This document shows, in pieces, positions 18,615-41,243 of a stretch of 64,000 nt of DNA (its first letter is position 1; every line of letters begins with the position of its first letter). The stretch is from an uncultured bacterium (GTDB lineage Bacteria; Zhuqueibacterota; QNDG01; CAYUAG01): assembly GCA_964515295.1 (NCBI GenBank), contig CAZETW010000001.1:367-64366 (forward strand). Direction: 5' to 3'. The notes under the pieces were generated by a model. The model had not been told where the DNA came from. It worked only from the letters and a program-made list of their open reading frames with translations, and ran no database searches. Made by a program: the position numbers and the translations under genes.

Positions 18615-18733
18615 TAGTATAATAACTTCTTATGATTAAATATATAATGCTAATTCATATAAAAATTTAAAAAAATTGTAATCCTTTAAAACAAACAGGA
18701 AAATTAATTGATTATTCAGCTTTATAAAAAATT

Positions 18734-21700
18734 CTATTTCAATTTAACCATCTTAATAACTTCAAACTTTTCCTTGCTGCTCAATCTGCAAAAATACAAA
18801 CCGCTTACCACCTCATTACCATTATCATCCAATCCGTCCCATTTAATATCATATTTACCCCGATTCTGCATTTTATCAACCAAACATCTGACCATCCTTC
18901 CCTTGGAATTATATATCATCAATTTGATCCAACCACTCTTTTCTATTTGATAATTAATTGTAGTTTCCGGATTAAAAGGATTGGGATAATTGGATATCAA
19001 TTTAAAGTTTAACTGGTTTTCAAAATCATCATTAATACCTGTATGAACAACAAAATTATCTTTATAATATTCAGAATTATTAATACACCAATATTTACAC
19101 TCAATATTAGTCTCCTGTTTCTGTTGAGATATATACCTAAAATAAACTTTTAAAAACTCCTGAATATCTTTAACTGGTTCTAAGCCAAATAAGGCAATTT
19201 TAATTTCACCTGAAACAGAATTATTATATATAAGATGGAATTTTTCAAGAGATGTATTCTTTTCAATATCAACAAATTCAAGAATCGTGGGATCATACTC
19301 TAACCATATATTTGCAGATAAAAGAGAAGATTCATTGGTAACGAGCAAAGGAAGACAGAATTCATCATTCCCGTCAGTTTTTACTATTGTTGGAGAATTA
19401 ACCGTTACAGTTTTTCCAATTTTCTTCTTTTGATTCCAGTCACCATCTATATCACCCAGAATATAAGAAGTAAAGTCTTGATCAGTAATATGTTCCGATA
19501 CATAATTACAGGTCTGGGATTCAGGATAAAAACGCCATGCCCCAGCTTGAGAAGATTCTGAATCAGTAATCCCTATTGATTTTTTGGCAATATAAACAGC
19601 ATCAAGCATATCAATGATGCCGTTTGTGTCTACATCAGCTGCTTTTAATGAATATCCTGACAATGAATCTAATCCAACTGTATGCCGTGCAGCCAAAACT
19701 GCATCATATGCTGAAATTGTAAAATAGTCAATGTCTTCATCTTTTTCTTTATAAGCAGAGACAGTAATACTGTCAGATTTTGAAACTTCAGGAAAAATAT
19801 AATATCCCTTACTATCGGTAATACTCTCTTTGTTTACAGTACCCTGCATCTGAAGTTGTGTGTCTGACACACCTGCACTATCCTGATAATATATTACTTC
19901 ACCAGAAAAAGAATAATCATTGACCCCTGTATCAATTATTATATTATTCTTTTCATATTCTGTGTTGTTAATTCTGAAATACTGCCACCGCAGAGTTGTT
20001 TCTTCAATTTCCTTAGTAATAACTCTAAAAGTGAGAGTGATAAACTGTTCAGTATTTTTCCTATATTTTGTACCGAACATTACGATCTTAAACATTCCCG
20101 GGATAGAATCATTATAAGTCATATGAACATTTGTCAAGTCCTCTGATTTATGTATGTCAATTAATTCAAGAGCAGATTCATTGTATTCACCCCAAATATC
20201 TGCACAACCCAGTGAATCTCCTTCATTAAGGCTCAAAGGAATGCTGAATTCATATGCTGCTGTTAAAATTCTATCAGCTGCAATACTATTCTTATCATGA
20301 ACCTTTTCAAATTTTACAGATTGCGCACTTTGATAATTTAACCAATCACCGTTAACATCTCCAAGTATATAAGCAGTAAAATCTTTTTCAACATTTTCCT
20401 TAATGTTTTCACAGAAGAAAGACACTGGTGAAAACTTCCATTCTCTTGCACCTGAAAACTCCTGATCATCAACATCAACCGCTGCTCTGGCAATGTAGTG
20501 TGCATCCGACATCTCTATACTGCCATTGTTATCAACATCTGCAGCCTCGGCAGCTATCCCATATAAATGTTCTATATTAACTGCATGCCGTGCGGTCAAA
20601 AAAGCATCATAAGAAGAAATGACCAGACCTTCAACATCTTCTGCCTTCTCTTTAGAAGGAGTGACTGATATATTATTACCAGCCTTTATTCCCAGAAACT
20701 GATATATACCGCTATTATTGGTAAATGTTTCATCCTCTTTTCCACCCTGCATTTTCATTCTTACATCAGGAACAAATTTATTGTGTTTAAAATACTTGAC
20801 TTTTCCGTTAAAAGAAAATGTCCTGAGATCAAGTAAGATATCTTCCTTCTCAAACCAAGTATCATTAATTCTGTAATGTTGCCAATACATTTGTGTTGTA
20901 TCATCTATAACATCAGGAATTATATTAAAAATTATCTGTATGAATTCATCTTCTTCCCATACCGACACTGAATTGAACAGAGCGATCTTTAAAATACCGG
21001 GAACACTGCTATTATACACCAATTGAAAATCATCGGTTAATGAAGTAGTTTTAATATCCTGAACTGAGAATAAGGACGGATCGTATTCTAACCATAAATC
21101 AGAAGATAACATCAGCATATTCCCAGGCAAAGTCAGCCCGATAGTAACAGTGCTGTCACCATGATAAACCTCATAATAATCATGGTTATGTATCACCTTA
21201 TTGTTTATTGACCCCTCTGGTGTAGTCCAGTTACCATCCACATCACCTAAAAGCCAGGAAACAAAATTCTGTCCCCCGAAATTTGATTCCATCATTCTTT
21301 CTATATGAATCTGAGGAGGATCAAATTTCCAGTCTCCAGCCCGAGAACCATTGCTGTTGGGCAATCCTACTGCCTTTTTGGCTATCAATAAAGGATCTGT
21401 TTGATCAATAATATTATTTTCATTAACATCTGCTGCCTTTGCAGAAAAACCTGTTAGATTTTTTATCCCTTCAGCTGCACGGGCAGTTAATGCCGCATCA
21501 TAAGCAGAAATTGTACATTCTCCAACATCTGAATCACTGGTCTTGAAAGCTGTTATATTTAAATTGTTGTATCCTCTATCAACCGGAAATTTATATAAAC
21601 CATTATTATTTGAATATGTATCCAATGACTTAGAACCGCTTATCTGAAGCTTAACAGATGGTACGTCTCGGTTTTGCTTATAATAATCGACCTTTCCACT

Positions 21701-23260
21701 AACGATAAAACTATGGTAATACACCCTGTCTTCTTCTGTAATAGTAATAAAGGTATCAGCTGGTACTAACATTTCTCTTTGAACAATACCACTCGGCCAG
21801 TAAATAATCAGACTGTCAACCACACTGTTTCCAGCCAGTCCAAATTCAACCGGTAAACTGTCCATTTTATATCCATCCCCGCCCAAAACCTGCCTCATTT
21901 GCAGCTTTCCGTTTGTATATGCAACTACCCTGGAACTTATTCCGTCTCTGTTGGATTCGTCTCCAACCAGTTTGACATGCAGCCAGTGATTTTCACCACC
22001 TGAATTCTCAAATAATGTTGTATAGTACTTAGGAGGATCTTTATCAGTTCTTGCAAGAAAAATATCAAGATAACCGTCCTGATTATAATCTGCAATCGGG
22101 GCTGAATAATTAAAACGGGTATTTTCTTTGATGTTTGCACTTCCGGCAACATCAGTAAAGGTTCCATCCCCATTATTCCTGTATAAACGAAAACCTGATC
22201 CTAAACTGGAAACTACCAATATATCAATATATCCATCATTATTGAAATCGGCTACAGATAATCCTCCTCCATAAGGGGCACGACCAAGTTTTTCCCATAA
22301 ACCGGATCCCTGGGTCACCTCAGTAAAAGTACCGTCTTTGTTATTCTTGTACAGTATTGATTTATCATCACATCTCCTGGTATAGAGATCAAACCATCCA
22401 TCATTATTGTAATCTAAAAATATTGCTCCATAAAATCTGTTTTGTTTTACTATCCCCCGCTCTTCAGTTTCCTCAGAAAATGTACCATCTCCGTTATTTA
22501 TAAACAGACGACAATCTGTTTCATAATTAGCATCAAAAAAATCCATATAACCATCATTGTTGATATCAGCAAATGCAAATCCCCAGATATCCTTAGAATC
22601 ACGGATATAATCTAAGCCTGCCTCTTTACTTTGAAGTAAAAATTTTGCATTATCAATATTTCTGTAAACCAGTAAAGAAGGATTACTATACCGGGTGTCA
22701 CCAAAACTGAATAAATCCAAAAGACCGTCATTATTATAATCCACAAATGCAACATTTCTTCCTCTGTTTTTATGATACACTTTGGAATTATTGGTAGCAT
22801 TCCAGAAAATACCATCATTATCCTGCCAGTATAACAGTACTTTTTCTGTTGGATAGTGACCATTAGCAATCACAAAATCTGTTTTTCCATTATTATCAAA
22901 ATCTGCTGCTGCAAATCCCTGAGCGCTTGTACGCGGACTGGAGCCCGAAACTCTGGCCTGCTTGGTTACATTTTTAAACGTCCCGTCTCCCATATTCTTG
23001 AGGAGAGCGTGAGGAAGATTCAACCCGGACCAGTCTCCAAAACTTTCATTATGCACTATAAATATATCAGGCAAATTATCTCCGTTATAATCAAAGAAAC
23101 CAGATCCGTGCGTATTGCATACTACATTAGTTTTGGTTTTCCCTCCGACATTTTTAAAATGTATCTTTTGAGTTTGTGAAAAAAGCATCTGATCACCAAA
23201 CAAACTGCAAATCAGGAGTATTGAAACTTTTAAAATTATTTTCTTCATATTACTACCCAT
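18734..23260 (-). CDS. T9SS-secreted 1508-aa protein: CRTAC1-like FG-GAP/VCBS repeats + ASPIC/UnbV domain, three ~300-aa tandem modules with dockerin-like Ca-loops, C-terminal T9SS sorting domain
   Basis: Signal peptide. Seven D-x-N-x-D-G-x-x-D repeats, then the UnbV/ASPIC block (GGENHWLHVKLVGDESNRDGI..GDGY..S.....FGL....V..L.IYWPSG). Three paralogous modules each carry IS(A/S)YDA.L(T/A)AR...AADV(N/D)xNG.I(D/E) and ILGDV(N/D)GDW. The C-terminus NYPNPFNPETTINYQ...KLMIYNSKGRMV is a type-A T9SS CTD. Confidence 0.8.
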   Translation of the reverse strand: MGSNMKKIILKVSILLICSLFGDQMLFSQTQKIHFKNVGGKTKTNVVCNTHGSGFFDYNGDNLPDIFIVHNESFGDWSGLNLPHALLKNMGDGTFKNVTKQARVSGSSPRTSAQGFAAADFDNNGKTDFVIANGHYPTEKVLLYWQDNDGIFWNATNNSKVYHKNRGRNVAFVDYNNDGLLDLFSFGDTRYSNPSLLVYRNIDNAKFLLQSKEAGLDYIRDSKDIWGFAFADINNDGYMDFFDANYETDCRLFINNGDGTFSEETEERGIVKQNRFYGAIFLDYNNDGWFDLYTRRCDDKSILYKNNKDGTFTEVTQGSGLWEKLGRAPYGGGLSVADFNNDGYIDILVVSSLGSGFRLYRNNGDGTFTDVAGSANIKENTRFNYSAPIADYNQDGYLDIFLARTDKDPPKYYTTLFENSGGENHWLHVKLVGDESNRDGISSRVVAYTNGKLQMRQVLGGDGYKMDSLPVEFGLAGNSVVDSLIIYWPSGIVQREMLVPADTFITITEEDRVYYHSFIVSGKVDYYKQNRDVPSVKLQISGSKSLDTYSNNNGLYKFPVDRGYNNLNITAFKTSDSDVGECTISAYDAALTARAAEGIKNLTGFSAKAADVNENNIIDQTDPLLIAKKAVGLPNSNGSRAGDWKFDPPQIHIERMMESNFGGQNFVSWLLGDVDGNWTTPEGSINNKVIHNHDYYEVYHGDSTVTIGLTLPGNMLMLSSDLWLEYDPSLFSVQDIKTTSLTDDFQLVYNSSVPGILKIALFNSVSVWEEDEFIQIIFNIIPDVIDDTTQMYWQHYRINDTWFEKEDILLDLRTFSFNGKVKYFKHNKFVPDVRMKMQGGKEDETFTNNSGIYQFLGIKAGNNISVTPSKEKAEDVEGLVISSYDAFLTARHAVNIEHLYGIAAEAADVDNNGSIEMSDAHYIARAAVDVDDQEFSGAREWKFSPVSFFCENIKENVEKDFTAYILGDVNGDWLNYQSAQSVKFEKVHDKNSIAADRILTAAYEFSIPLSLNEGDSLGCADIWGEYNESALELIDIHKSEDLTNVHMTYNDSIPGMFKIVMFGTKYRKNTEQFITLTFRVITKEIEETTLRWQYFRINNTEYEKNNIIIDTGVNDYSFSGEVIYYQDSAGVSDTQLQMQGTVNKESITDSKGYYIFPEVSKSDSITVSAYKEKDEDIDYFTISAYDAVLAARHTVGLDSLSGYSLKAADVDTNGIIDMLDAVYIAKKSIGITDSESSQAGAWRFYPESQTCNYVSEHITDQDFTSYILGDIDGDWNQKKKIGKTVTVNSPTIVKTDGNDEFCLPLLVTNESSLLSANIWLEYDPTILEFVDIEKNTSLEKFHLIYNNSVSGEIKIALFGLEPVKDIQEFLKVYFRYISQQKQETNIECKYWCINNSEYYKDNFVVHTGINDDFENQLNFKLISNYPNPFNPETTINYQIEKSGWIKLMIYNSKGRMVRCLVDKMQNRGKYDIKWDGLDDNGNEVVSGLYFCRLSSKEKFEVIKMVKLK
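19018..21718 (-). repeat. Intragenic triplication: three ~900-nt tandem modules inside the 1508-aa cargo gene
   Basis: Protein-level periodicity of ~300 aa (module starts near aa 515, 816, 1116) with conserved motif order. DNA identity looks diverged, so the copies are old paralogous modules rather than recent duplicates. Confidence 0.6.
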
Positions 23261-23289
23261 AATATAAATTACATATAATATTTCTTAAT

Positions 23290-24327
23290 TTATGCAAAAG
23301 GTATTTTAGTCATCGTATAATCCGGATCAGGATGTATGGTGGCAGTCCATATCATAGCTTTACGCATAATATTTCCGATCAAAGGCCAGGACTTCATTCT
23401 ATGTACGCTCTGAGCAAGAGATCTGCTGTAATCAAACGGAGGCTGAGAGTAATCATATTCATGCAGTCTCTGATACCGATCACAAAAACCCCATCGTTCA
23501 ACCAATTTATTAGGGGACTGAGTTTTAAATTTCACGATAATTTCTTTTTTCTTCTGTAATTGAGCATCTGTCATTTTTAAATAATAAACCTTGTCATTAC
23601 GCACAGGTTCAGGAGGATAATCATAACTGACTAATGGTATAAATCGTGTAAGTCCTGATAAAATCTTTTCCGGAGTTGTTTTAAAAGACATAAAGAAATT
23701 ATATATTGGCGATTCATAAACAGCGCAACGCAAATCCAGCTTATCTAAAGCTTTACTGACCATATAATTTGTCACATCATGCTGATAATGTCCACCCTCA
23801 TAAAGAGGTATAAATATTGTTTCTGGTCTTGCCCCTTTTATATATGTACTGATCCGATCGATACCTTCATCAATTTCATCTCTGGTGAGAAAACTTTCAT
23901 TATTCGTATAGGGCAAAAATTCTATTGTTACTGAATCTTTCCCTAAAACAGACCAAGCATCTAATGCCTCCTGTTTACGGGTAACCTTATCATCTTTATA
24001 GCCATCAGTAGTATAAAGAATGTTCACATGTCCCCCCTTTTCAACTGTCTGAACTGCATATCCCCCGGCCAAAGCAACACAATCATCCTGATGAGGAGCA
24101 ATAATCAAAATATTCTCACCATGTGACTGAATAAATGTTTTATTTTGATTTCTTATCTTATAGAATAACCACATAACAAATGCTGAATACATCAAAAATA
24201 AAAAACATACACCACACACCAATAATTTTAACCATAATGAGACAGGTATTACAAATACCACAATTAGGATAATTGAAGAAACCAAAATTAAAACTATCAT
24301 TCTTAATGTAAAATTTTTACTTGCCAT
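23290..24327 (-). CDS. PIG-L / LmbE-family (CE14) N-acetylglucosaminyl deacetylase with N-terminal membrane anchor
   Basis: Two N-terminal TM helices, then ILIIAPHQDDCVALAGG (the family HPDDE-type motif) and a downstream His-x-x-Asp metal-ligand block (GGHYQHD). 30 nt upstream of the 1508-aa cargo gene. Confidence 0.78.
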   Translation of the reverse strand: MASKNFTLRMIVLILVSSIILIVVFVIPVSLWLKLLVCGVCFLFLMYSAFVMWLFYKIRNQNKTFIQSHGENILIIAPHQDDCVALAGGYAVQTVEKGGHVNILYTTDGYKDDKVTRKQEALDAWSVLGKDSVTIEFLPYTNNESFLTRDEIDEGIDRISTYIKGARPETIFIPLYEGGHYQHDVTNYMVSKALDKLDLRCAVYESPIYNFFMSFKTTPEKILSGLTRFIPLVSYDYPPEPVRNDKVYYLKMTDAQLQKKKEIIVKFKTQSPNKLVERWGFCDRYQRLHEYDYSQPPFDYSRSLAQSVHRMKSWPLIGNIMRKAMIWTATIHPDPDYTMTKIPFA

Positions 24328-24332
24328 TACCT

Positions 24333-24566
24333 TTAATTCTTTTGAATAACTTTATAAATTTTTTCAATTGTTGAAAAATTATCTTCTGTTATATCCTCAA
24401 TTTGTATCACAACATTCAAATGTTCATCAATATAAGAAAGAAATTCTACAATCCCATAAGAATCAAGTATATTTTTCTCAAACAAATCTTCATCATCCTC
24501 AGGCGAATAATCACTATATTCTTTAAAAAAATCTCTCAATGTCTCTTTAATATGATCTTTATCCAT
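24333..24566 (-). CDS. Stand-alone acyl/aminoacyl carrier protein (ACP/DltC-like)
   Basis: 77 aa, acidic, with a putative phosphopantetheine-attachment serine in the LDSYGIVEFL helix-II context. Sits between the acyltransferase and deacetylase genes with 5-12 nt gaps. Confidence 0.55.
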   Translation of the reverse strand: MDKDHIKETLRDFFKEYSDYSPEDDEDLFEKNILDSYGIVEFLSYIDEHLNVVIQIEDITEDNFSTIEKIYKVIQKN

Positions 24567-24578
24567 TAATCCCTCATA

Positions 24579-25439
24579 TTATAAATTAAATAATACCAGC
24601 TCAGAATACAGATTGTCAATATCATATCTCCTCAGTTCAGAAGACCTGAATAATGGTTTATTTTTTAACTTTAATTTTTTGGAAAAAGCAACTCTCCTGC
24701 CTTCTATAAAACGCTCATCAATGACTATTGCCAGAACTTTAAACTTAGAACATAACCAAAAACGAAATGAATTAAAATACTTGTTAAATACTTCTAAATC
24801 ACTAATATAATGAACTCTGGCCATGAGGAACGGCATTTTTTTTCTTACCATCCTCGTCATTACAATATAACACTTTCCCTTTGAAGTTTTAATTAATATA
24901 TGATGACAATATCTGAATTGATGATCAAGAAAAATACTCCTGTTATGATCATCCAGTTCTTTGTTCACTACTTTTTTATCTTCAATAAAAGAAATATCAG
25001 GAAATCTCTTTATTATATTCGGTAGAGGAAAAATAAATCTGTAATAAGATTCAAGCTGCTTAAATCCAGCTCTCTTTAAAAGATTATACACTTCCTTAGA
25101 TGGAGTAAAATCTGTAATAGTATATGATTTCAGTTTTAGGACAGGCTGAAGCATAAAAATACTCTTACTCCGGTATTTTTCATATACTATCCAAGAGGTT
25201 AAATTACAAAATTTATACTTTTCTCCATTTATTATTCGTTGATTGAATAAAAGCCCTAAAAATCCTACTGCCTCATTCTGATCCATCATAATGTATCCAC
25301 AATACCCTTCATCTGTATCCCAGTTCTGATAAAACAGTCTTTTCCAATCTTTCCGGGTCATATAACGGGCATTGAAATCCTTTAATAAAGGATATATCAA
25401 TTCAAAATCTTCTTTTACAGCTTTTCTTATTTTGGCCAT
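24579..25439 (-). CDS. GNAT-fold / Fem-like acyltransferase (hypothetical)
   Basis: 286 aa. N-terminus MAKIRKAVKEDFELIYPLLKDF is GNAT-like; size and organisation resemble FemXAB/VimA-type aminoacyl or acyl transferases. No strong motif identification. Stop overlaps the decarboxylase start. Confidence 0.4.
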   Translation of the reverse strand: MAKIRKAVKEDFELIYPLLKDFNARYMTRKDWKRLFYQNWDTDEGYCGYIMMDQNEAVGFLGLLFNQRIINGEKYKFCNLTSWIVYEKYRSKSIFMLQPVLKLKSYTITDFTPSKEVYNLLKRAGFKQLESYYRFIFPLPNIIKRFPDISFIEDKKVVNKELDDHNRSIFLDHQFRYCHHILIKTSKGKCYIVMTRMVRKKMPFLMARVHYISDLEVFNKYFNSFRFWLCSKFKVLAIVIDERFIEGRRVAFSKKLKLKNKPLFRSSELRRYDIDNLYSELVLFNL

Positions 25440-25442
25440 GTA

Positions 25443-26690
25443 TTAACTCACACTTGGTATTTTCTTTACGTTATCATAACCATAAACCATAATCTCAACA
25501 GGTTCAGGATGTGATAAAAACAAGAGAGGACTTGCGGTAAGCGCATAGGCTCCTGAATTCATGAATCCGATGTAATTCCCTCTAGTTACCTGAGGTATCT
25601 CTACCTTACTGCCCATAATATCAATTGTTGTACATAAAGGCCCCACAAAAGTAACAAATTCGGATTTTTTATTATCAGGATTAGAAAGATTGATAATTTT
25701 AAAATTCTTTCGTATAACCTGCCCGAAATTCCCACTGGCTGCCAAATGATGGTTCATTCCCCCGTTAAGCACACAATATACTGTATCTCTGGAATTCTTT
25801 TTATCAACCACTTGAGTAATATAATACCCTGCTTCAGCCATTATAAATCTGCCCAGTTCTATAATACCGGTAAGTGTTGGTAAATTTTGCTTTTTTTTAA
25901 AATCAGAAAATACTTTACTTAAAGTAATGGATACATCCTCAGCAGGCAGACTGCTTTGTTCTTTATAATAAGGCACTCCAAATCCGCCTCCGAAATTAAT
26001 CTGCTGAGGCACAACACCGAATCCTTTAATAAATGTTTTTACAATTTTCATTGTATTCTTAAAATTATTTATCAGGGCTTCAGGTATCAGACACTGCGTT
26101 CCGGAATATACATGATACCCGACAAAATTACAGTTACTGCTTTTCTCCAGCAATGCAAAAAATTCTCCGCAGCTCTCTTCATCAATTCCAAACTGTGAGG
26201 ATCTGCCGCCCATTTTAATAGCAAATTCCTTAAATACCTGTGCCGGATTTATTCTCAAAGAAACATTAGCATTAGTATTTAACTCCTCAGCAATCTTCTG
26301 GATTCTTTTCAATTCGTTTATGGATTCTATACTGATAGATCCGATGTTATGTTTAATGGCCTCTTTTAATTCATCATCACTCTTTCCCGGTCCGGCAAAA
26401 CTCATATACTCAGCCTTAAATCCTCCCTTCAGGGAAAGCTGTAATTCTCCCCCTGAAGAAATGTCCGCACCGTCTGTCTCCTGACTGAGCATGTTAAGCA
26501 GTTCTGTATTGGGATTTGCTTTTACTGCATAATATAATTCAATATCATCCCCTAAATTATTTTTTAACATTCTGATCCGATCCCGGACAAAACGCATATC
26601 GTACACATAACAGGGTGTTCCATATTCCATAACAATTCTGATGAGATCAATTCCTTTAAAAGGGGTTGTAATTGTGTCTGCTTTACTCAT
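25443..26690 (-). CDS. PLP-dependent decarboxylase, Orn/DAP/Arg decarboxylase family 2 (LysA/BtrK-like)
   Basis: PLP-lysine motif YYAVKANPN near the N-terminus, TIM-barrel plus beta-sandwich organisation, C-terminal GPLCTTIDIMG and SGAY blocks equivalent to LysA GPLCESGD/GAY. Confidence 0.85.
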   Translation of the reverse strand: MSKADTITTPFKGIDLIRIVMEYGTPCYVYDMRFVRDRIRMLKNNLGDDIELYYAVKANPNTELLNMLSQETDGADISSGGELQLSLKGGFKAEYMSFAGPGKSDDELKEAIKHNIGSISIESINELKRIQKIAEELNTNANVSLRINPAQVFKEFAIKMGGRSSQFGIDEESCGEFFALLEKSSNCNFVGYHVYSGTQCLIPEALINNFKNTMKIVKTFIKGFGVVPQQINFGGGFGVPYYKEQSSLPAEDVSITLSKVFSDFKKKQNLPTLTGIIELGRFIMAEAGYYITQVVDKKNSRDTVYCVLNGGMNHHLAASGNFGQVIRKNFKIINLSNPDNKKSEFVTFVGPLCTTIDIMGSKVEIPQVTRGNYIGFMNSGAYALTASPLLFLSHPEPVEIMVYGYDNVKKIPSVS

Positions 26691-28254: not shown

Positions 28255-28264
28255 ATTCTCTGTC

Positions 28265-31200: not shown

Positions 31201-31672
31201 GTGATGTAACAGAAAAGGTTGCTGAACTATCAGCATCATACCATCCTCCGCCCTGAGTATCCCCGTGAAGTGAAATAACTGTCAGTTTGAACTGTTTTTT
31301 AAAATATACTGTTAAGGTATCATTATAACCCGGAACACTATAGATGTGAGTTTGTTCTCCACCATCTTCCCAGTTTTTATAAACATACTTAAATTCACTG
31401 CTGCTGTCTTGCGGGGATGGTGCAGAAAGCAAATATGTATCCCCCTTGCTCCATTGAAAAGTATAGGGGGCAGTATATTCAACACTGTCAACCTCAAATA
31501 CTAAACCAGCTGGATTTGTATTAATGGTGATTGAATAAGTATCATTTTTTTCAGCCTTAAGCGGATCAATCGGGGGGGCTCGATCGCCAGCAAATAAATT
31601 ACTCACCATGGATACAATGATTAAATATATAAATAATAAAAAAAAATTATAATTTCTATTTAGCAAATACAA
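28265..31672 (-). CDS. T9SS-secreted 1135-aa protein built of divergent InlB B-repeat (Listeria-Bacteroides repeat) units
   Basis: Signal peptide. Repeated Y.LT....P..GG.I.PS.P..W.........A....GY.F.GWSGD.SG..NP..I.M...K...A.F units. C-terminus QNQPNPFNPETMIEF..ELSVYNTRGQHIKTL...GIYFYIL is a T9SS CTD. Confidence 0.8.
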   Translation of the reverse strand: MYLLNRNYNFFLLFIYLIIVSMVSNLFAGDRAPPIDPLKAEKNDTYSITINTNPAGLVFEVDSVEYTAPYTFQWSKGDTYLLSAPSPQDSSSEFKYVYKNWEDGGEQTHIYSVPGYNDTLTVYFKKQFKLTVISLHGDTQGGGWYDADSSATFSVTSPVIDYSIKYIFDNWMGDHYDSTATATVVMDTSKTVFAVWAVQYFLTTGINPDASGTIIPSPPGQWVDADSSITVSAASFSGYEFTGWSGSVSGDKNPLTISMSEPKNVYANFGKKVYITISTQPPGLQFYANAVLYTAPHTFFWTEGSIYYLKAESPQPFSQGSRYVFSSWSDGAEDIARNYHVPGANDNLSINFKEQYYLSLDTPHGNPQGEGWYDENQNVSFSVTTPDVDSTTRYLFNSWGGDYSGADPSGSVTMESPKIITASWDTQYYLTLNSPYGNPQGEKWYDSDTTASFSLTSPIGDNLTRYFFDHWSGDYSGTATSGSVIMDDAKIINAHWITRHYLSLSEQPDEGGDITPSPPGSWYEEDSEVGLNASAAEGYKFTGWSGDLSSTESSVIITVSKPKDITANFKKEIQVTITTDPPGLEFTADDTLYTDSHTFTWLEDSEHYLDADSVQSLDNRTRYKFNTWSNQGEKRQLYTVPLTNSTVTARYFTQYYLIVNSSYGNPEGERWYNRDSTAVISVDRYHYDDQTRHKFLNWSDDAQGDTSVVVLLIMDSPKTVTANWQKQHHLTVDNSGHGITQGDGWYKEGSEAVFSIAPPVITMEGDSQYVFVEWIGIGKGAYSGEDISHTIIINNPVTEKARWDLQYKVTTSTVPAWGGSIQFSSGNEWYNKGEQVTITAKPAQNTDYEFSYWSGDLSGNTNPADIFIDNPKNICAHFIIRGTVTVTTDPEGIPITVDGTTYISPKQFKWISGTIHTIGTTDSYSPLSGVKFIFNEWNNKGKRVQTIEAGVNSLYRAFFLTKYYLSTSVTPPEGGVMLPESDWFYKDSIVTVQVNSAPGFEFVNWKGDLTGSYNPDEIIMSAPRNVTAEMRKTTDIDEAGEIPADYILKQNQPNPFNPETMIEFSVPHNCIIELSVYNTRGQHIKTLCKGVKGRGKHTIIWDGTNDAGGDVSSGIYFYILRTDKALKKRKCILLR

Positions 31673-33074
31673 CCTTTCTCATTTTTATTATATCATCTGC
31701 TTTAAAACTGATAATATAAACACCAGAACTCAGAGAATTATTATAGTTATCCTTTCCGTTCCAAACTACTGAATGACTGCCAGACATCATATACTCATCA
31801 ACTAATTTTTTTATATATCTTCCCTTTAAATCATAAACGTCAATGTTTATATAAGCTGATGTGGGTAAATGATAATCAATTCTGGTCTGAGAGTTAAAAG
31901 GATTGGGATAGTTTTGAAATATTTTAAACCCTTTCACCGGATTAAATTCCGGGTCCCTAATATCCGTATACGGTACAGTTAATGTCCTGTATTTATCATT
32001 GCACCATACTGCATTTCCATTAGTATCTATCGCCTTGACACTCCAGTAATATACGCCTTCTTCAACTGTAAAAATTAATAAAATCGATTCTCTGATAAGT
32101 GATGTATGTTTTCTTAAAATCCCGGATTGAAAAGTTGAATCTGTTCCTAAATAAAATGTATAGGTTATGGAGTCATTCTTGTCTACATTCACCGATTCTT
32201 CCCAAAAAAATTCAATTTCATTCTCTCCACTCTGTATTATAGTATCCTGGGGACTTATTAAGCTGAAGGGAAGAGGATCATCTTCTACGGGAAGAACCGT
32301 TACTTTAAAAGTATCAGAATCAGAGTAATTATAAATATCAGAAACAATTATTATTAAAGTTGCCACCCCACTCCAGTGTGGATCGGGTATTAAGGTTAAA
32401 TTTGGTTTTTCATAAACACAGGTAAAGTAATCACTGCCCTGAATACTTATATCCAATTCATCAATGGTATTATCAGGATCACCTATATGAGAAACAATAT
32501 TAAAAGTATAAGTACTGTCTTCGAAAAATTTTATATCATCAATCGTAGTAATATAAGGCGGTTCGTTGTGAATAATGTTCAGTCTTGCTCCAGATTCGGA
32601 AGAAATTTCCGTTTCGAGCTGTCCCTGAACATCATAGAATAAGGCCTTTTGAATATTAATATCTGTTTTACGCTCTACATCCTTAATAACCCGGACATCT
32701 ATAAATAATAAGGTATCAAGGCTGTCCAGAGCATTAATGAATAATGATTCTGTAGAAAAATTAACTACTCGGAACTCTCCGGTCAAACGATTATAAAATG
32801 GTTCGCCCCAATCTTCGGCTAAGGTACCTTTCTGAGAGACACCGTATATTTCAATAAGTTCAGGGTTATAATTAAACTGCAGATGATACGCCACTATAGT
32901 ATCATCAACTGCAGAACTAAGCTGAACCGGCAGTGAAAACTCATAATTATAACATACCGTTGAATCAGGGATACTAATACTAATTTGACTCATTAATGAT
33001 TCTAAAGTAACCAAAGTATAAAAAAAGACTGATATAACAGCTATTATATTTTTTCTATTAAAATTCATCTTCAA
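31656..33074 (-). CDS. T9SS-secreted 472-aa protein with Ig/FN3-like domains
   Basis: Signal peptide. C-terminus FQNYPNPFNSQTRIDYHL...IDVYDLKGRYIKKL...GVYIISF is a T9SS CTD. Stop overlaps the start of the 1135-aa gene by 17 nt. Confidence 0.75.
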   Translation of the reverse strand: MKMNFNRKNIIAVISVFFYTLVTLESLMSQISISIPDSTVCYNYEFSLPVQLSSAVDDTIVAYHLQFNYNPELIEIYGVSQKGTLAEDWGEPFYNRLTGEFRVVNFSTESLFINALDSLDTLLFIDVRVIKDVERKTDINIQKALFYDVQGQLETEISSESGARLNIIHNEPPYITTIDDIKFFEDSTYTFNIVSHIGDPDNTIDELDISIQGSDYFTCVYEKPNLTLIPDPHWSGVATLIIIVSDIYNYSDSDTFKVTVLPVEDDPLPFSLISPQDTIIQSGENEIEFFWEESVNVDKNDSITYTFYLGTDSTFQSGILRKHTSLIRESILLIFTVEEGVYYWSVKAIDTNGNAVWCNDKYRTLTVPYTDIRDPEFNPVKGFKIFQNYPNPFNSQTRIDYHLPTSAYINIDVYDLKGRYIKKLVDEYMMSGSHSVVWNGKDNYNNSLSSGVYIISFKADDIIKMRKVVFAK

Positions 33075-33340
33075 AATAAATGTATAACAATTTTAATTTG
33101 TTTTCAACCAATTAATCGATATTCTTTTCACTTTTATGTCCACCCTCTTAATATATTAAATTTCTCAGTTCACAACAAAATTTTGCCCACGAAAAACTGT
33201 ATTGTATTAATTATTAAAGTTTTAATTTCCGTGGGCTTCATTTTTAATGATTTTACTCACTTTTTATTTATATTTAAAGTTTCAGCACACTGTATCCCCA
33301 TAAATTTTCTTATGTAAATTCCAATCAATTACATCTATCA

Positions 33341-36300
33341 TTATTTCAGCTTAACCATTCTCTTGATCAATATATTATTCTCTGTGCTTAAACGATAGAT
33401 ATATATACCTGTTGAAACTTCTGCACCCTGTTCGTTTCTGCCGTTCCAATCAACTTCATAAAATCCGGGGGTTTTAAATTCATTTACAAGCACTTTAATC
33501 TGCTGTCCCATCATATTATATATCGCCAAATTAACTGTACCAGCTTCCGGAATCTCATAATGAATTCTGGTTGACGGATTGAAAGGATTGGGATAATTCT
33601 GAGAGAGTATGTATTTCTCCGGTGCCGGGACTTTGATCATTAAAGGAGAGTGTTCGGTGCTGTTTCCATACACATCTATATCAGCGACCTTATAAAAATA
33701 CGTAACACCAACCTGAACTCTGGTATCTTTATAGCGATAAATACCTTCTTCATTTGGCTGAATAAGAGAACTGTTAATCTTATGATACGTACCTGATTCA
33801 GTTATACTGCGCAGAACATTAAATCCCTGATTGTTATTTTCGAAAGAAGTAGACCAATGAATATCAACACAATTACTATTTTTTTCAAATTGGATAAAAT
33901 AAGATGCAAGCTGTATACTGGTTTGAATAATTTCAACTGTCCAGGTATATTCACTGGCAAACGAAACTCCTCCGTCATCACTAATACGTACTTTGACATT
34001 GATATTTTCATCCCCGGAATAATCTTTATCAATTTTATGATAATATACTGCATAATTATGATTCTGGACTATCTGACCATTTACTTCCCATCTGTAGGTT
34101 AGCGGATCTCTATCCGGATCCTCAGCCTCAACCCAGAACATAACCTCGCTGCCGGCATTCACTGTGGTATCTCTTGATACAGGAAGTGTTGATTTAATAG
34201 TTGGGATTCTGTTATTATTTATCACCTCAATGGGTAAGGTAACTGTATCATATCCTCCTTTACCGTCAGTAACTCGTAAAACGATTGAATAAGAACCAGC
34301 CTGTTGATAATTAGGTGTCCAGGTAAAGGTTGCGGTTGTCTCAGTATTTTTAATTATATTTGCACCTTCCGGAAGATCAATAAATCCTTCCTGATATGCC
34401 TGAAAGGATAAAACATCCTGTAGATCATTATCACTTGCATAAACGGCAATAGTAAGTGGCCAGGGATTATTTTCATTTATCTGATAAGGTGAATTATCGA
34501 GTAGATTTTGCTTATTAGAAATTACCGGAAAATATTCATTTTCAACTGCTTCTACATAAAATTCCACTACATTTTGGGAAACAGCTGTTATAACCGCTTC
34601 ACCCGTTGTATTCCCGGCTTTGAACTTAACCATAGCATGACCATTACTGTCAGTCAAAACCGGCTGTGCTCCGATAATTTCACCATCACCTTGTTTTGTA
34701 AAGGTAACAGAAGTTGCTGAAACCGGATTTCCGAATTGATCTACGACTTTAACCATAAGCGGATCTGGCAGAATATGTCCGATAGTACCTTTCTGATTAT
34801 TTCCTCGTACAATTATCATTTCTGCTGCCTGATCTGGCTGCGGGTATATAATAAATTCCAGAGGTGACCCTTTGAGTTGATTATTGGTGGCTTCAATAAT
34901 TATAGTTTCAACCGAACTTCCAATTGCTATAGTAGCACTGGCCACTCCTCCTGTGTTGGTCTTTATCAGATATTCCTGATTTCCCTCAATAGTGGCATCT
35001 CCTTGTATAACAGTAAAAGTAATGGGTACATCTTTTACTTTATTGCCAAATTTATCAGTAACTATTGCTTCAACTGTAATATTCGATTCAAGATATCCTT
35101 GTCTTGTTCTGTCTCCGGAATCAATATAATTAATATTTCTCGGTAAACCGGAACTTACAAAAACTTTAAATTCAACAGGTGAACCCGCTAAATTCCTGTT
35201 TATTGCCTTAACATAATTTTGCGTTCCGCTTTGATCACCAGCAGTAAATAATGTCCAGGCTTGTCCCCATTCATTAGTTTTCATAGAAGTATGTGAGACT
35301 TCACCACCTCCCTCAACTTCAAAACTTACCGGAACACCGTAAACAAATCTGTCATTATTATCAACAACTCTGACTTTTAAGGTATCAGTTAACTGTTCTC
35401 CGGCTTTTCCATTCAAAGCTAAAGAAGTTACATTATCAATCTTATATGCTTCATTATCCTCAGCAGTGGCTTCAAAATTTAAAGAACTTACAATAGAAAC
35501 ATCAGCGGTTACTGATACTATATTCAGTCCTGTCTCTGGACCTAAAATCAGCTGAGACTGTGCTAATCCTTGCTCATTACTAATAACTGGCTGTTTTTCT
35601 ACAATTTCACCTCCACCATCGGAGATTTGAAAAGTAACAGGAATACCTTCTTTGGAATTTTGATTTGCATCAGTCACTTCCACCATCAATGGATACTTAA
35701 GAACTGTATTGATATTCCCCACCTGATGATCAGTGTCTTTTTCATTATATTTCTTGATGTAAGCGGCTTCTGTAGGATTAACATATACAGTATCAACCGT
35801 ATTCAACTGAATGTTTTCATCAGTTACTTGTGCATATACAATCTTCCGACCAGCAGAATAGGAAACAAAGGTGGCATGAGTCTGTCCCTTCTCATCAGTA
35901 GGTTGCTCTGGCCCGTATATATGAATTCTATCCTTAGGAAGCACCTTGATAGTAACACTTTTCCCGAAAATTGGATTACTATATTTATCATACAATGTAA
36001 CCGTTACACCTGCAGAATCCCTCCCGGAAGCTTCTATCGTAGGGGTAGCATCTATCATCGATGAATCCGGATCCACTGAATCTGCTTCTGCAGAGGCATA
36101 AATATATATCGGAGCTCCCTTTAAAGTATTCACTCCATTACTTGCAGAAATCTTTAATATATTATTATCTTCACCTGCCTTTTTCCCCAATACCCAATCT
36201 AGGGAAGCCTTTCCGCTATCATTAGTTGCAACAACAGTGGTAGTATCGCCTAGTCCGTTCAGATGGCCGCCGCCTTTTATTACTGACCAATTTACTGTTA

Positions 36301-39300
36301 CATCTTTCACAGGATTTCCTGGTTTTGTATCATCCAATACCTTAACTTTAACATTTACTGGTTTACCTACGGTTCCTGAAATATGAGAAGGTGAAAGGGC
36401 AAACATGGTATCAGCATTCGAAACTACAGCCGAAAGATGAAATTTGACTTCACGATGATTATAGGCATTATTAAAATATACTGTAACTTCATTATTATAT
36501 TTACCTACTTTCGGTCCCAGGGTTAACCAGGCAGAGGCTAAACCGCTGTGATCAGAATAAAAAACCAATGAATCCTTCGGTGTTTCACCGCTAAAATATC
36601 CATCTCCTGCAGTAACTTTATAGGTGAGCGGTTGATTAACAACTGGTTTTCCCTCACTGTCGATCATTTTTACTTTTAAGGGACCAACTATTTCACCTAC
36701 TACTCCGGAAAGACTATCACCCTCAACTTTTAACAACTTGTCTGCATCTGAGGAAACATACAAGGTAAAACGTTTCGGTGATCCTTTTACCGGATAGAAT
36801 CCATCTGTTGCCGAGGCTTTTATAATATTATTGTATTTACCATGGTACTGGCCGGCTCTTACCCTGATAGATGCAACGCCATCAGGATAATTTGTGGTAT
36901 CAAAGGCTACTTCTCCTCCGGCGCTGAATTTAAAACCATACCCCTCTGTTTCATAAATAATGGGAACACCCCCAGCAGGAGCCCCAGAAGGTGAACTTGC
37001 ATATATCTTTAAAGGAAATTTAAATATGGTTCCTGCCTTTGCTTTCTGATTATCTCCACTCCCCTGAGGTTTATATATCTCAGATATTTTATAAAAAGCT
37101 GTATCAACTAATACAGTATCAAAATGCAGACTGGTCCTGGCGATAACTATCACTTCCTCAGGATCAGGACCCATGGTAATATTTCCTTTGGCAATTCCCA
37201 GATTATCTGTATAAAACCGATGTTCTGCAACTGACGCTTTTCCTTTTATCACCTCAAAAGTAACAGGAGTATTCTTAATTGGCAGAGGCGGAGTTGCATC
37301 ATCCAAAACCTGTACCTGTAAAATCTCTTTGAACGTTTCATTAATATAGAGTTTTTGATCTGCCTGAAGTGAGACCGGGAGCAGCTTACCCACTAAACCA
37401 GTCCCTTTGTTTACCCGGCCTGTAAACTTAATTTGCTGACCTGTATATCCTTCAAAAGTTGCCAGCACTTCATATAAAGTATCCTGACGTCCAAGCGTTA
37501 AATACGTCGATGCTTTTCCATACTCATCAGAAAAAACACTTGTATCAGAGAGGCTTCCGTCTAAAGAATTTACAATCTCAAAATTGACCTTATGATTAGG
37601 TACTTTATTCTGATATGCATCCAGCAGAGTAATGACAAACTGTTTTGGCAGTGTGGTACCTGCATCACCATATTGGTTATCATTTAATTTTAATAATGAA
37701 CTCGGAACATCCGGTAAAGCTTCAGCTTCAAAAGCCACTGAATTTTCAGCTCCTAAAGGTCTGGCAATAATCCTATTAAGTCCTTCATTTATATCAGGAG
37801 TACTTTTATCATCAGCAGTGGTGCCCAGGGTCCAGGTAGCAGTAGCTATTCCATTGTCATTGGTTAAAACCGCATTATTGGGTTCAGTATCCGGAACATT
37901 TATATACCCTTCTTCTCTGGTCAGCAGCAACTTGTCCAGGGGAACATCTGCATGGACAGTTTTGATTTTCAGCGTATGCATCCCTTTACTGAGTTGCCGG
38001 GTAAAATTCTCACCTTTGTATCCTACCTGTACTACATCCCATATCCAGTTAGGACTTCCACCCTGTTTCTGCTGAATATACCACGTAAATTCTTCTTCAT
38101 TGGCTGTACCTTCATCAAAAACAACAGCAAAATTCCACCCCTTATAATCATTCTGCGCCCACTTGGTGCGAGCATAGAGCGTATACGTACCTGCCTGATC
38201 AATATATATCTTGTATTCAGCATATCCGGTTCTATCCGGGGTTTCCTGGGATGATTTAATATACTTCCCGCCTGAGGCAGTCTGATCTTCAATCTCAACC
38301 ATGGGCGTTTCTATGGAGGTATACCACTCTGCCTCAATATACAGCCTGTCATTATTGATTTCTCCTGATCCGATACTTCCGTTACCTTTTGTTACATTAA
38401 AATATACCGGCCAGTCAGGAAGGAAAATATTATTTTTATCATATACCCGGACCTGCAGCTCTTGCTCTAATTCTTTATTTACTGTATCGGAAGGTAATGA
38501 AACCGGACCTACAGCTTCAATATATTCTGCATTCATTCTCATAAATGAAGTTGAAAAAGAATTTACTGCGTTATAACGGTTATTTGCCTTCTGAGTGAGC
38601 ATTATACCTGCATAGTTTTCTTCCTTATTCCCGAATAACTTCTTATAATCATACAATGCAAACCTGGATGCTGCCCGCCAGGATGAGCCGCTTATTCCTC
38701 TTTTTATAAATAAATCAAATCTGTTATAGGCATTATTATCAGTATTGATAATTACTGCTAAGGTATCCCCTGCTCCCGGATATCCGCCTAAATTTTCAAT
38801 ATCTAAAGGAACAGCATCTAATCGTGAATTAGTAGGATCAGCAATAATACCATTATCTATACGAAACAGATATATTACATCCAGCTGATTACGGATAAAT
38901 AACAAGTAACCATTTGCTGATGTGCTTGTATCACTGGCCAGCAAAACAAATCCTCCGTTTGCATTTTCTCCGCTTTGAGGATCCTGTACACTGTTGCCCC
39001 ATACCATTCTGACTTCAGAGGGATTTGTCCCGCTTTTATAGATTGCCATACTCCCCCAGTCTCCGGTCTGATAATCATTATACAGCTCTCCGTTGTCTTC
39101 ATCAATTTTGTATTCATCCGGATTATATACCCAGTTACTGGTAAACACATCACTTTCATCCAATTCATCAGTAATCAGATTTCTCTTTGCTGTTCTGGAT
39201 GATACTGTCGGAGACAAGTCTCCGCTGTTTCCCCAGTCATCAATGGTTTTAATGGCAAAATAATAATCAGTATTCGCTAACAGACCTTCAACTGTGACAC

Positions 39301-40999
39301 TCTGGGTAGGACGGGATGAACCGTCACCGCAATCTGCAGGCTGCGGAATACTCCCGACAACATTGGCATCCTTAAAATTATCTGTCGTTATTGACTCAGT
39401 GGAGTATCTTATGTCATAACTGGATGCCTGACCGGTAAATCCATCATCTCCCACTGCAGTCCACTGGAGTGTAATACTGGAGGCTGATTTGGAAATCGGG
39501 GTAATATCAGTAATTCTGTTGGGAGAAACCAGATCCTCATATGATGTTGACACTTTAACAAAATCTATCTTCAGATCTTTTTCAGGAGTACTGCCGCGAA
39601 AAGTCACTCCGGAATAATAATTTGTATCAGGATTTAAAGGAGGTTTATTTGCATAATCGCTCAATTCAAAAATCACTTCTTTTGGGTTTGAAGGAGGCGG
39701 ATTTACTTCATTCATAAGCTTTACACTGAAGTTAGTTCTGGTTTCAGTTATGATATAGGTAACTGACAAACTGTCGCCATTACGAGGATTCAGAAACGCT
39801 TTCCTCTCAATCTGATCGGAAATTATTCCATTCACCACTTTATGCAGTCTGGCATATCCACTATATACAAACACCATATATCCGTTTACTATTGATATAT
39901 CAGTGGTATCACATGCCACTAACAATCCCACTCCGCTGGTTATACTGTTATCAGAGCTCGATTGCTCATGATATCCCATGGTAATAGAATTAAATCCTCT
40001 GGATTTATGCCAGATAGCTAAATCCTGCCAGGAAGAACCCTCATCAAAAGTATATATATACCCCCCATTTGCATTAGTAGTTAAAATTGATCTGCTTGCA
40101 GTCCAATTCTGCAAATCACCTAAACGTCCTGGCATAGTAGAAAATTCATCTCTTATGGAAAGAGCAAGTTCATTTTCTATATACATACTGAATACATCTG
40201 CCATTTTTATATATCCATCTTCATTGGGATGAATATGATCTTCATTAGGACTGATAGGACCGTCATCCTGTCCGTAATATTTATTCTGGTTACTGTAAAG
40301 GGCAGCGTGCATATTTATAATTGTCACTCTGGCCTGTTCATCATTGCTTAAATTATTATATATAATATCAATTTTAGAATTATAATCTAAAATCCTGGCA
40401 TTAACACCAGGATAATCATTAAACGGTGCTCTGGGTATTATTTTACATAAGAATATATTATCAACTGTGTTACCGCCTGCGTCATAATCCAGCAGGGCCT
40501 GTAAGAGATTCTCCAGTTCTTCCTGAACAGAAACTCGAAAACCACCCGAAATCGGCTGGTCTGAGCCCATATCATTTGTTCCGATATGGAGCAGTATAAT
40601 ATCAGGAAATTTTCCTGCCATACGTAGATTATCAAGAGTAACTTCAACATCAAAGGGATTATTAGGCTGAGGCTGCAGATCCGGACTGTATGAAGGGAAA
40701 TAGGCATCGGGGATAAACTGTTCTATGGTTGCTCCGTCATGCCATTCACCATCATAAAACCCATCATCCTGTGGACCTACCATCTCGATAGTAAACCCTG
40801 CATTGCTAAGGTTATCATAAAGATGGTCCCTGTACCCATGTTCACCGGGTATGGGAGCAGCATTATGCGCTTTACCCCAGGTAATTGAATTCCCCAAAGG
40901 CATTACTTTAATTTGAGCTTGTATGGTTCCTGATAATAAGCAAGTAAATACTATACTTAAAAACCAGATTCTTCTCATTCTATGTATGATAGCCTCCAT
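33341..40999 (-). CDS. Giant (2552 aa) T9SS-secreted adhesin-like protein: N-terminal SGNH/GDSL hydrolase domain, 10 or more invasin/intimin-type Big_1 Ig-like repeats, FN3/cadherin-like domains, C-terminal T9SS CTD
   Basis: Signal peptide (probable start at internal [11 protein letters not shown], ~40978). SGNH blocks GNSITWG (block I Ser), LHIGTNDMG (III), [10 protein letters not shown] (V). Repeated V.V.D..GNPV....VTF.V..G.G Big_1 units. C-terminus [38 protein letters not shown]...GIYIYRL. Confidence 0.85.
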   Translation of the reverse strand: [2552 protein letters not shown]

Positions 41000-41243
41000 A
41001 AATCTATTCCTCCTCAGGCATTAAAATAATATTTTTATTCATGATTTATTAACTGAGCAAAAAAAATGCCAGAAAAATACTATTCGAATATAAGTTGTTG
41101 CTTCTAATAAATTTAAGCATAAAAAATAATATTTTCATTATTAAATATAGCATAATTCTAACAAATATCAACCGAAATTAATCCAACTGAACAAATTTCT
41201 ACCAATTACAGAAAAATAAACATTTTGCAAATACTAAATATTT

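Follow-up and report, generated by a model that had tools for sequence, protein, structure and literature searches.

Type IX secretion cargo genes interleaved with a predicted aminoacyl-carrier, sugar-tailoring pathway in an uncultured Zhuqueibacterota bacterium

In Porphyromonas, Tannerella and Prevotella, the cargo proteins of type IX secretion systems (T9SS) are joined by an amide bond to N-seryl, N-glycyl or N-alanyl sugars (PMC7468200; PMC11969387), the linking sugar of P. intermedia being N-alanyl (PMC11969387). In the Wbp/Vim pathway, VimE, a CE4 enzyme, takes off the 2-N-acetyl group, VimA, a GNAT of family TIGR03019, adds the amino acid, and WbpS, an AsnB-like enzyme, makes the uronamide; VimA-like, deacetylase and AsnB genes have also been noted in PEP-CTERM/exosortase loci (PMC7468200). 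Here, we describe a locus at positions 18734-40999 of a 64,000-nucleotide stretch of DNA (the window; contig CAZETW010000001.1) from an uncultured bacterium of the Zhuqueibacterota, in which the genes of four T9SS cargo proteins, cargo A to D, lie among those of an amino-acid adenylating ligase, a small carrier protein, a decarboxylase that depends on pyridoxal phosphate (PLP), a tandem-GNAT acyltransferase and a PIG-L/LmbE-family de-N-acetylase. We put at roughly one half the probability that this is a conserved surface locus combining T9SS cargo with a cytoplasmic and membrane-located sugar-tailoring pathway that follows an aminoacyl-carrier route, the favoured purpose of which would be surface display of the cargo.

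The resemblance to Wbp/Vim lies both in the cargo, which carries a type-A C-terminal domain (CTD), and in the chemistry predicted here, by which an amino sugar would be de-N-acetylated and then N-acylated with an amino-acid-derived group exposing a free amine. An AsnB-type amidotransferase that can be likened to WbpS occurs in loci related to that in the window, as does a weak match to UDP-GlcNAc 3-dehydrogenase. The differences concern the individual parts: a PIG-L enzyme stands in for CE4 and an unnamed tandem GNAT for VimA, and the predicted donor is a carrier-protein thioester, made by the ligase and decarboxylase, of an omega-amino acid rather than of Ser, Gly or Ala. In addition, the pathway genes of the window lie in among cargo genes instead of being dispersed. 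We infer that the locus works like Wbp/Vim without being a member of that system.

The predicted route to the donor has its closest counterparts in antibiotic biosynthesis. BtrJ/BtrI/BtrK (butirosin), VinN/VinL/VinO and FlvN/FlvL/FlvO (macrolactams) and CtaD/E/F (closthioamide) each comprise, as does the window locus, a ligase, a small carrier and a PLP decarboxylase of the alanine-racemase fold. In the BtrJ/I/K, FlvN/L/O and CtaD/E/F trios, Glu or Asp tethered through its side chain is alpha-decarboxylated to a 4-aminobutyryl (GABA) or beta-alanyl thioester of the acyl carrier protein (ACP) (PMC11350588; PMC7857480). All of these trios feed antibiotics, whereas the context in the window is a surface glycan and secreted proteins; a hydroxylase and obvious protecting-group enzymes are absent from the window locus, unless an M20 deacylase encoded beyond cargo D fills that role. 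The transferase in Btr/Vin-type systems is BtrH or a polyketide synthase loading enzyme, whereas in the window it is a GNAT.

Two further comparisons are relevant. The loci of TIGR03098 and TIGR03099, the nearest curated ligase and decarboxylase families, likewise couple a C-terminal protein-sorting system to polysaccharide synthesis; here the partner sorting signal is the T9SS CTD instead. Neither exosortase XrtA nor PEP-CTERM proteins were found in the window or in the related loci examined, and the XrtA-system matches in the window were a tetratricopeptide repeat (TPR) match to PrsT, far below cut-off, and weak family 4 glycosyltransferase (GT4) matches to XrtA-system glycosyltransferase models. 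A literature search returned no function for TIGR03098/TIGR03099 and nothing relevant on an exosortase with a ligase, a decarboxylase and an ACP. As in DltABCD, which places D-Ala on teichoic acid, and AlmEFG, which places Gly on lipid A, a ligase would load a DltC-like carrier for the benefit of an envelope glycopolymer. Those systems have no decarboxylase, employ transferases of the MBOAT/DltD or lipid A acyltransferase types and form ester linkages, whereas the window has a decarboxylase and a GNAT, and the predicted linkage is an amide.

Enzymes of the cassette and the cargo proteins

Nine minus-strand genes fill 18734-40999 (Table 1). The ligase belongs to the ANL family, scoring 258 bits against an amino-acid adenylation domain model and 209 bits against the DltA model, and its best matches in the PDB are adenylation domains of nonribosomal peptide synthetases, VinN-type beta-aminoacyl-ACP synthetases and DltA. 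Also retained are the FD motif, in which the Asp235 equivalent binds the substrate amino group, and the C-terminal GKIDR motif. The carrier protein has an LDS motif, is DltC-like by both NCBIfam (38.5 bits) and PDB sequence search, and is called as a gene in all relatives; its gene lies two genes downstream of that of the decarboxylase, which itself overlaps the ligase gene by 8 nt. The best PDB match of the decarboxylase is BtrK (2j66/7ru7), an 'L-glutamyl-[BtrI ACP] decarboxylase' (E 1e-81, 278 bits, 37% identity); in the same search, diaminopimelate (DAP) decarboxylases reach at most 172 bits. Its motifs AVKAN, GGGFGVPY, ELGR and GPLCT align to their BtrK equivalents, and the PLP-binding Lys, the GGGFG stretch and the Cys are all in place. 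The decarboxylase is thereby predicted to act on a carrier-bound amino acid. By their profile scores, the ligase and decarboxylase are close relatives of TIGR03098 and TIGR03099, not members by the curated rule.

The acyltransferase, for which 149 homologous clusters were found, was modelled with AlphaFold2 (pLDDT 92), and its best structural matches are double GNATs of the Eis-like and N-myristoyltransferase-like folds; Eis N-acylates amino sugars. Pfam gives just a sub-threshold Acetyltransf_1 match, and neither the window protein nor any of 29 homologues has an NCBIfam match at E<=1. The enzyme is paired with a sugar de-N-acetylase: the PIG-L gene is two genes away in the window, and CE4 genes stand beside homologues in five other loci (L005, L006, L007, L020, L023). 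The PIG-L protein scores 57.6 bits against PF02585 (gathering threshold 28.2) and has a hydrophobic N-terminus with two membrane helices. Its APHQDD motif and the downstream His/Asp pair (H79, D81, D82, H183 and D184) are invariant across 35 homologues. The subfamily has 70 clusters, and a sequence search found no close solved relative. At the level of the family, PIG-L enzymes de-acetylate GlcNAc-type sugars.

The type-A sorting domain of T9SS cargo is described by TIGR04183, with a curated cut-off of 23 bits. Cargo A scores 38.1, cargo B 32.8, cargo D 28.7 and cargo C, which is borderline, 23.2 bits; all four matches reach to within 6 residues of the C-terminal end. The CTDs can be aligned to each other and have a PNPFN motif in common in their tails. 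Each N-terminus has basic residues followed by a hydrophobic segment, which on reading the sequence resembles a signal peptide. In cargo A (2551 aa in its ortholog in L043), Pfam places after this segment an SGNH/GDSL esterase, fn3, a GH115_C-like domain, at least six Big_1/invasin Ig domains, a Big_9/cadherin-like region and the CTD. Cargo B consists of a cohesin-like domain (Pfam Cohesin 24.7 bits, cut-off 24.1), Big_9 and the CTD (Por_Secre_tail 28.6), and cargo C of an array of InlB B-repeats (Flg_new_2, 165 bits) and the type-A CTD.

Cargo D has the most elaborate architecture, for which Pfam gives an FG-GAP beta-propeller of about 520 residues with ASPIC, three CarboxypepD_reg-dockerin-cohesin units (34-39% identity among the three copies) and the CTD. 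An AlphaFold2 model of the propeller (pLDDT 89) matches murine CRTAC1 (9etn) with a TM score of 0.78 and E 2e-29, and the runner-up is a fungal GlcNAc-binding propeller lectin. The first 520 residues thus share the fold of the CRTAC1 family (FG-GAP propeller plus ASPIC/UnbV), which is very large in bacteria; unlike that family, the propeller of cargo D has three dockerin-cohesin units and a T9SS CTD as fusion partners and is genetically tied to a sugar deacetylase. Our literature search found nothing linking CRTAC1 to type IX secretion. The presence of cohesin and dockerin modules within and between neighbouring cargo suggests self-assembly into a surface lattice.

Conservation of the locus in other genomes

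Because 13.8 kb of the block was recovered at ~100% identity in two independent assemblies, it is not an assembly artefact. In the closest relatives (L003/L043/L044 and L046), the exact gene order of the window is kept, including, by gene calls, a 214-nt counterpart of the spacer between cargo A and cargo B, and the GNAT is 79-87% identical. In L004 and L009, with GNAT identities of 66-69%, the cassette is followed by an ortholog of cargo D, M20 and aspartate kinase, and the upstream cargo differ. The gene upstream of the ligase in L004 (1-5240, at least 1745 aa, running to the contig end) fuses a CRTAC1-like/cohesin N-terminal part to an InlB-repeat C-terminal part like that of cargo C; modules have evidently been shuffled between these cargo genes.

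A second lineage (L008, L050, L074, L075), at 40-59% identity, has the genes for the carrier protein, ligase, decarboxylase, GNAT, a CRTAC1-like CTD cargo, PIG-L and a second CRTAC1-like CTD cargo, in that order. The flanks of this unit hold genes for a GT4, a Wzx flippase, an AsnB-type amidotransferase (TIGR03108-like, ~290 bits), YdjM and ArnC-like family 2 glycosyltransferases (GT2s). All close relatives have the M20 and aspartate kinase genes after the cargo D ortholog; the second-lineage loci lack both. A gene for a B12-binding radical SAM protein lies in or beside the second-lineage cassette (L074, 1091-2542; L075, 3678-5105, between ligase and decarboxylase), which suggests an extra modification, such as methylation, of the carrier-bound amino acid. 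A further arrangement, in L077, combines PIG-L, a CRTAC1-like cargo, AsnB, YdjM, GT2s and a hexapeptide acetyltransferase with the weak match to UDP-GlcNAc 3-dehydrogenase (118 bits, cut-off 450).

Wherever there was flanking DNA for a PIG-L of at least 45% identity, a CRTAC1-like cargo gene adjoins that PIG-L or, in one fragment, lies ~1.2 kb off, and PIG-L homologues below ~41% identity stand without the cassette and without a cargo partner. The persistence of this linkage across the window, second-lineage and L077 arrangements identifies PIG-L and the CRTAC1-like cargo as the conserved core, usually accompanied by the aminoacyl trio and the GNAT and set inside a glycan locus. On the same comparison, cargo A, B and C are lineage-specific additions.

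More distant GNAT homologues in Acidobacteriota, Desulfobacterales and a third metagenome contig adjoin CE4 polysaccharide deacetylases and lie in glycosyltransferase-rich loci. A deltaproteobacterial metagenome-assembled genome (MAG) carries the GNAT, ligase and decarboxylase beside KdtA, LpxL, a CE4 deacetylase and glycosyltransferases, and a MAG of the cyanobacterium Symploca carries them with Wzc, a Wzt-type ABC exporter, a DesI-like sugar aminotransferase, a CE4 deacetylase and glycosyltransferases. Since the three enzymes occur with an adjacent deacetylase in several phyla, they form a recurrent glycan-tailoring unit.

A first-pass annotation of the window had proposed a surface-structure locus in which four CTD-bearing cargo proteins of more than 5,600 codons and a tailoring cassette are made and modified together, and had named comparative synteny as a check. 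The size and sorting domains of the cargo (5,667 codons, all above the TIGR04183 cut-off) agree with it, as does the Pfam and NCBIfam domain content of cargo and cassette; cohesin, dockerin, Big_1, InlB B-repeats and the CRTAC1-type propeller fit a surface structure, and the synteny check came out in its favour in the closest relatives. Its emphasis on the four cargo as a set is not borne out, for across lineages the CRTAC1-like cargo alone travels with PIG-L. Nor is the idea that the components are modified together supported: the enzymes are cytoplasmic or membrane-anchored, homologues of the ligase, decarboxylase and GNAT stand in cargo-free lipopolysaccharide (LPS) and exopolysaccharide (EPS) loci next to a CE4 deacetylase, and the cassette most likely modifies a sugar rather than the cargo proteins.

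Predicted pathway and alternative explanations

The substrates, order of steps and anchoring link that follow are what we infer from the observed gene content, homologies and conserved linkage. The identities of the ligase, carrier, BtrK-like enzyme, GNAT and PIG-L predict two converging branches, one leading to an aminoacyl thioester and the other to a de-acetylated HexNAc. The ligase would adenylate Glu or Asp and load its side-chain carboxyl onto the 77-aa carrier protein, after which the BtrK-like enzyme would strip the alpha-carboxyl to leave a 4-aminobutyryl- or beta-alanyl-S-carrier protein. The membrane-anchored PIG-L enzyme would de-N-acetylate a HexNAc-type residue, probably on a polyprenyl-linked intermediate, and the tandem GNAT would then move the omega-aminoacyl group to the freed sugar amine. 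The predicted product is a surface glycan bearing a flexible primary amine, which could serve as the amine acceptor for the T9SS sortase joining the cargo C-terminus, or as a ligand of the propeller, above all for the CRTAC1-like cohesin/dockerin cargo D.

A more specific form of this proposal is that the locus encodes a new T9SS 'linking sugar' route, in which the BtrK-type pathway would equip a de-acetylated amino sugar with a GABA or beta-alanyl arm whose amine would be the sortase nucleophile for CRTAC1-like and other cargo. The same chemistry could supply the PEP-CTERM/exosortase acceptor, because the nearest curated ligase and decarboxylase families are exosortase A-associated. We regard this specific form as plausible, though well short of an even chance.

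Several observations weigh against the reading of the locus as a sugar-tailoring pathway for cargo display. Both curated families are missed by their cut-offs, the 'exosortase A system-associated' ligase family TIGR03098 at 572.5 (cut-off 592.35) and TIGR03099 at 436.9 (cut-off 478.45), and the loaded amino acid is predicted to be Glu or Asp, which the sequence does not separate. The de-acetylase is of the PIG-L type, not CE4 like VimE, and identity of the GNAT with VimA/TIGR03019 (pepcterm_femAB) was rejected for the window protein and its 29 homologues, none of which matched. No flippase or amidotransferase is adjacent in the window, which offers just a GT2/GT4 pair 5-7 kb upstream. Core T9SS genes (PorU, PorZ, others) are not visible within the 64-kb window; its sole signal resembling T9SS machinery is a weak PorV-like match (PF19572, 22 bits, cut-off 27) at 57404-60334. 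Finally, the aminoacyl trio was not found in the 8 kb covered upstream in L077, and since PIG-L and cargo occur there without it, the trio is not obligatory for the cargo.

One alternative is that no shared mechanism underlies the adjacency, the cassette tailoring LPS or EPS for charge or resistance to antimicrobial peptides, as do D-alanylation, glycine and aminoarabinose modification, and the cargo being ordinary neighbours in a CTD-rich genome. The ligase, decarboxylase and GNAT do occur without such cargo in cyanobacterial and proteobacterial glycan loci, a fifth CTD protein elsewhere in the window indicates that CTD genes are frequent, and most genes of the window share one strand. Chance would hardly explain, however, why PIG-L and CRTAC1-like cargo genes are interleaved and why their linkage survives rearrangement at 40-59% identity, and we consider this explanation unlikely. 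Less probable still is acylation or aminoacylation of the cargo proteins themselves by the cassette. GNATs can acylate protein amines, and the cassette is packed tightly among the cargo genes, but the ligase, carrier, decarboxylase and GNAT lack signal peptides and the cargo are predicted to be exported by Sec and T9SS; moreover, the PIG-L family targets GlcNAc-type sugars, and homologues of the ligase, decarboxylase and GNAT stand in LPS/EPS loci beside a CE4 deacetylase.

The least probable reading, to which we give very little credence, makes the decarboxylase LysA and the region a lysine (DAP) cluster of aspartate kinase, asd, aminotransferase and DapE-like M20 genes with cargo inserted. 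It would account for asd and the aminotransferase on one side of the block (41244-43671) and M20 and aspartate kinase on the other (16466-18614), and the decarboxylase does reach 265 bits against the LysA model. This score is nevertheless below the LysA cut-off of 298 and far under the 437 bits for TIGR03099, BtrK outscores the solved DAP decarboxylases by 278 to at most 172 bits, and the decarboxylase gene, which overlaps that of the ligase by 8 nt, accompanies the ligase, carrier protein and GNAT in loci without aspartate kinase, asd or M20. On scores and context, the LysA identity was dropped.

Transcription, neighbouring genes and implications

Table 1. Genes and intergenic features of the minus-strand run (positions of the window; ORF, open reading frame)
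Feature	Length	Positions	Strand	Basis
Divergent AT-rich intergenic region, asd (+) / cargo A gene (-), 21% GC		41000-41243		
Cargo A	2552 aa	33341-40999	minus	ORF
Conserved spacer, cargo A/cargo B	266 nt, or 272 nt with revised start	33069-33340	minus	
Cargo B	472 aa by longest ORF; ~470 aa revised	31656-33074; revised 31656-33068	minus	longest ORF
Cargo C	1135 aa	28265-31672	minus	ORF
Amino-acid adenylating ligase	523 aa	26683-28254	minus	ORF
BtrK-like PLP decarboxylase	415 aa	25443-26690	minus	ORF
Tandem-GNAT acyltransferase	286 aa	24579-25439	minus	ORF
Acyl/aminoacyl carrier protein	77 aa	24333-24566	minus	ORF
PIG-L/LmbE-family de-N-acetylase	345 aa	23290-24327	minus	ORF
Cargo D	1508 aa	18734-23260	minus	ORF
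ArgE/DapE-family M20 deacylase		17610-18614	minus	NCBIfam
Aspartate kinase		16466-17626	minus	NCBIfam
First terminator-like hairpin past the run	11-pair stem	16433-16462		terminator scan

From cargo A to cargo D, the nine genes are separated by 266, -17, 10, -8, 3, 12, 5 and 29 nt, so that from cargo B to cargo D, eight genes in all, no gap exceeds 29 nt; the 251 nt at 24328-24578 count as gap-free because the carrier-protein ORF sits inside them. The layout described by the first-pass annotation, with all genes on the minus strand, operon-like spacing by short gaps or overlaps and a 17-nt overlap of the 472-aa and 1135-aa genes, is thus reproduced (-17 to 29 nt for cargo B to cargo D), although its limits at 18734-40999 describe the nine genes and not the whole run. 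The M20 gene follows cargo D after 119 nt and is overlapped by aspartate kinase by 17 nt, and the co-directional run ends at 16466. Membership of these two genes in the unit is uncertain. Of the window's 45 genes, 32 are on the minus strand, and the GC skew stays negative throughout; co-directionality by itself is weak evidence, and more weight falls on how tightly the eight genes are packed.

The annotated 266-nt gap with its long-spacer hairpin is present, and only its size changes. The TTG start of cargo B at 33074 becomes TCG or CCA in two relatives and the ATG two codons on, at 33068, is conserved; translation therefore likely starts at the ATG, giving a protein of ~470 aa and a spacer of 272 nt. 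The hairpin (33236-33185; stems 33236-33226 and 33195-33185) has 11 pairs, a loop of ~30 nt and a fold z-score of -2.6. In a three-genome alignment its stems are invariant and its loop variable, and a nearly invariant block of ~60 nt, 3' of the hairpin and directly upstream of cargo B, holds a weak sigma70-like match (TTGAAA-17-TACATT, 33107-33079). The hairpin is not a known RNA, since an Rfam scan of the whole window returned zero families; a tRNA/tmRNA scan of the window found none. The spacer looks like an internal regulatory element acting as an internal promoter or through attenuation or RNA processing.

Transcription probably starts in the divergent region upstream of cargo A, which we take as the likely main promoter region: it is 92% identical to that of the relative L043 (flanking coding DNA 81-89%), and its best sigma70-like match, TTGATA-16-TATATT at 41171-41144, has an upstream TG. 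The Bacteroidota-type -7 motif TAnnTTTG was not found in any of the three intergenic regions, and the numbers of sigma70-like and terminator-like matches are about those of shuffled sequence. The terminator scan called no canonical intrinsic terminator in the spacer or the other intergenic spaces. The first terminator-like hairpin lies between the convergent aspartate kinase and 15325-16290 genes, with a T-rich tail on the plus strand only.

Cargo B to cargo D are very probably one transcript, because the gaps never exceed 29 nt and the scan called no terminator between genes, and a single transcript for the whole nine-gene block is plausible; cargo A and M20/aspartate kinase may share the cargo B to cargo D transcript. 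Only slightly short of an even chance is the alternative that cargo A is transcribed alone, a promoter in the spacer serves cargo B to cargo D and M20/aspartate kinase has a promoter of its own. The conserved hairpin stems, followed by the near-invariant block with its sigma70-like match, favour such a division, as does the gap before M20 (18615-18733), which is 15% GC. Conservation of that gap is weak, at 67%. Against it stand the lack of a canonical intrinsic terminator after cargo A and after cargo D, promoter-like matches that do not rise above the shuffled level, and the relatives in which just 3 nt (L009) to ~41 nt (L004) separate cargo D from M20.

On either side of the block lie aspartate-family genes, asd and a PRK08637-type aminotransferase at 41244-43671 (+) and M20 and aspartate kinase at 16466-18614 (-), which may supply or process the amino acid of the cassette or may merely be a split lysine cluster. 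A gene for an AAA_14/DUF4143 ATPase at 43715-44887 (-) is missing from the otherwise syntenic L043, a recent insertion or deletion. Farther upstream, at 4-10 kb (45080-50695, -), are genes for a TPR protein, a DUF4292 (LolB-like) protein, an ArnC-like polyprenyl-phosphate GT2, a GT4 and a methyltransferase. Between this GT2 and the one encoded after the AsnB-like gene of L050, identity is 43%, no more than a suggestive tie; a functional tie of the GT4 (46103-47224) to the GT4 of the second lineage was dismissed, the two being 19% identical. The gene of the fifth T9SS-type cargo (60344-63271, -; with VWA, DUF11 repeats and, as its CTD, the FlgD_ig type) is placed 9 nt upstream of the gene for a 976-aa protein (57404-60334, -) with a weak PorV-like N-terminal barrel, CARDB and OmpA, and the pair may represent a cargo and its dedicated partner in the outer membrane. 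Adjacent genes at 53097-55887 (+) for a PP-loop ATPase, an AIR-carboxylase-like protein and a nickel-insertion protein look like a larE-larB-larC set for the nickel-pincer cofactor.

To our knowledge, the anchor chemistry of T9SS cargo is known only in three oral Bacteroidota, in all of which the acceptor is an N-aminoacyl sugar, and we know of no acceptor described for the exosortase/PEP-CTERM system. The locus described here places T9SS cargo genes directly among sugar-tailoring genes whose predicted product is an amine-tipped sugar, and so offers a testable anchor candidate outside the model organisms together with a first hypothesis on what the exosortase-associated ligase and decarboxylase families may do. 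It further singles out those bacterial CRTAC1-like propellers that come with cohesin and dockerin modules as likely glycan-linked parts of a surface lattice. Should the anchoring link prove wrong, the locus would still be an ordinary, well-conserved one for surface proteins and glycan modification; should it hold, and the same chemistry serve exosortase sorting as well, two unrelated C-terminal sorting systems would share a kind of aminoacyl-sugar anchor.

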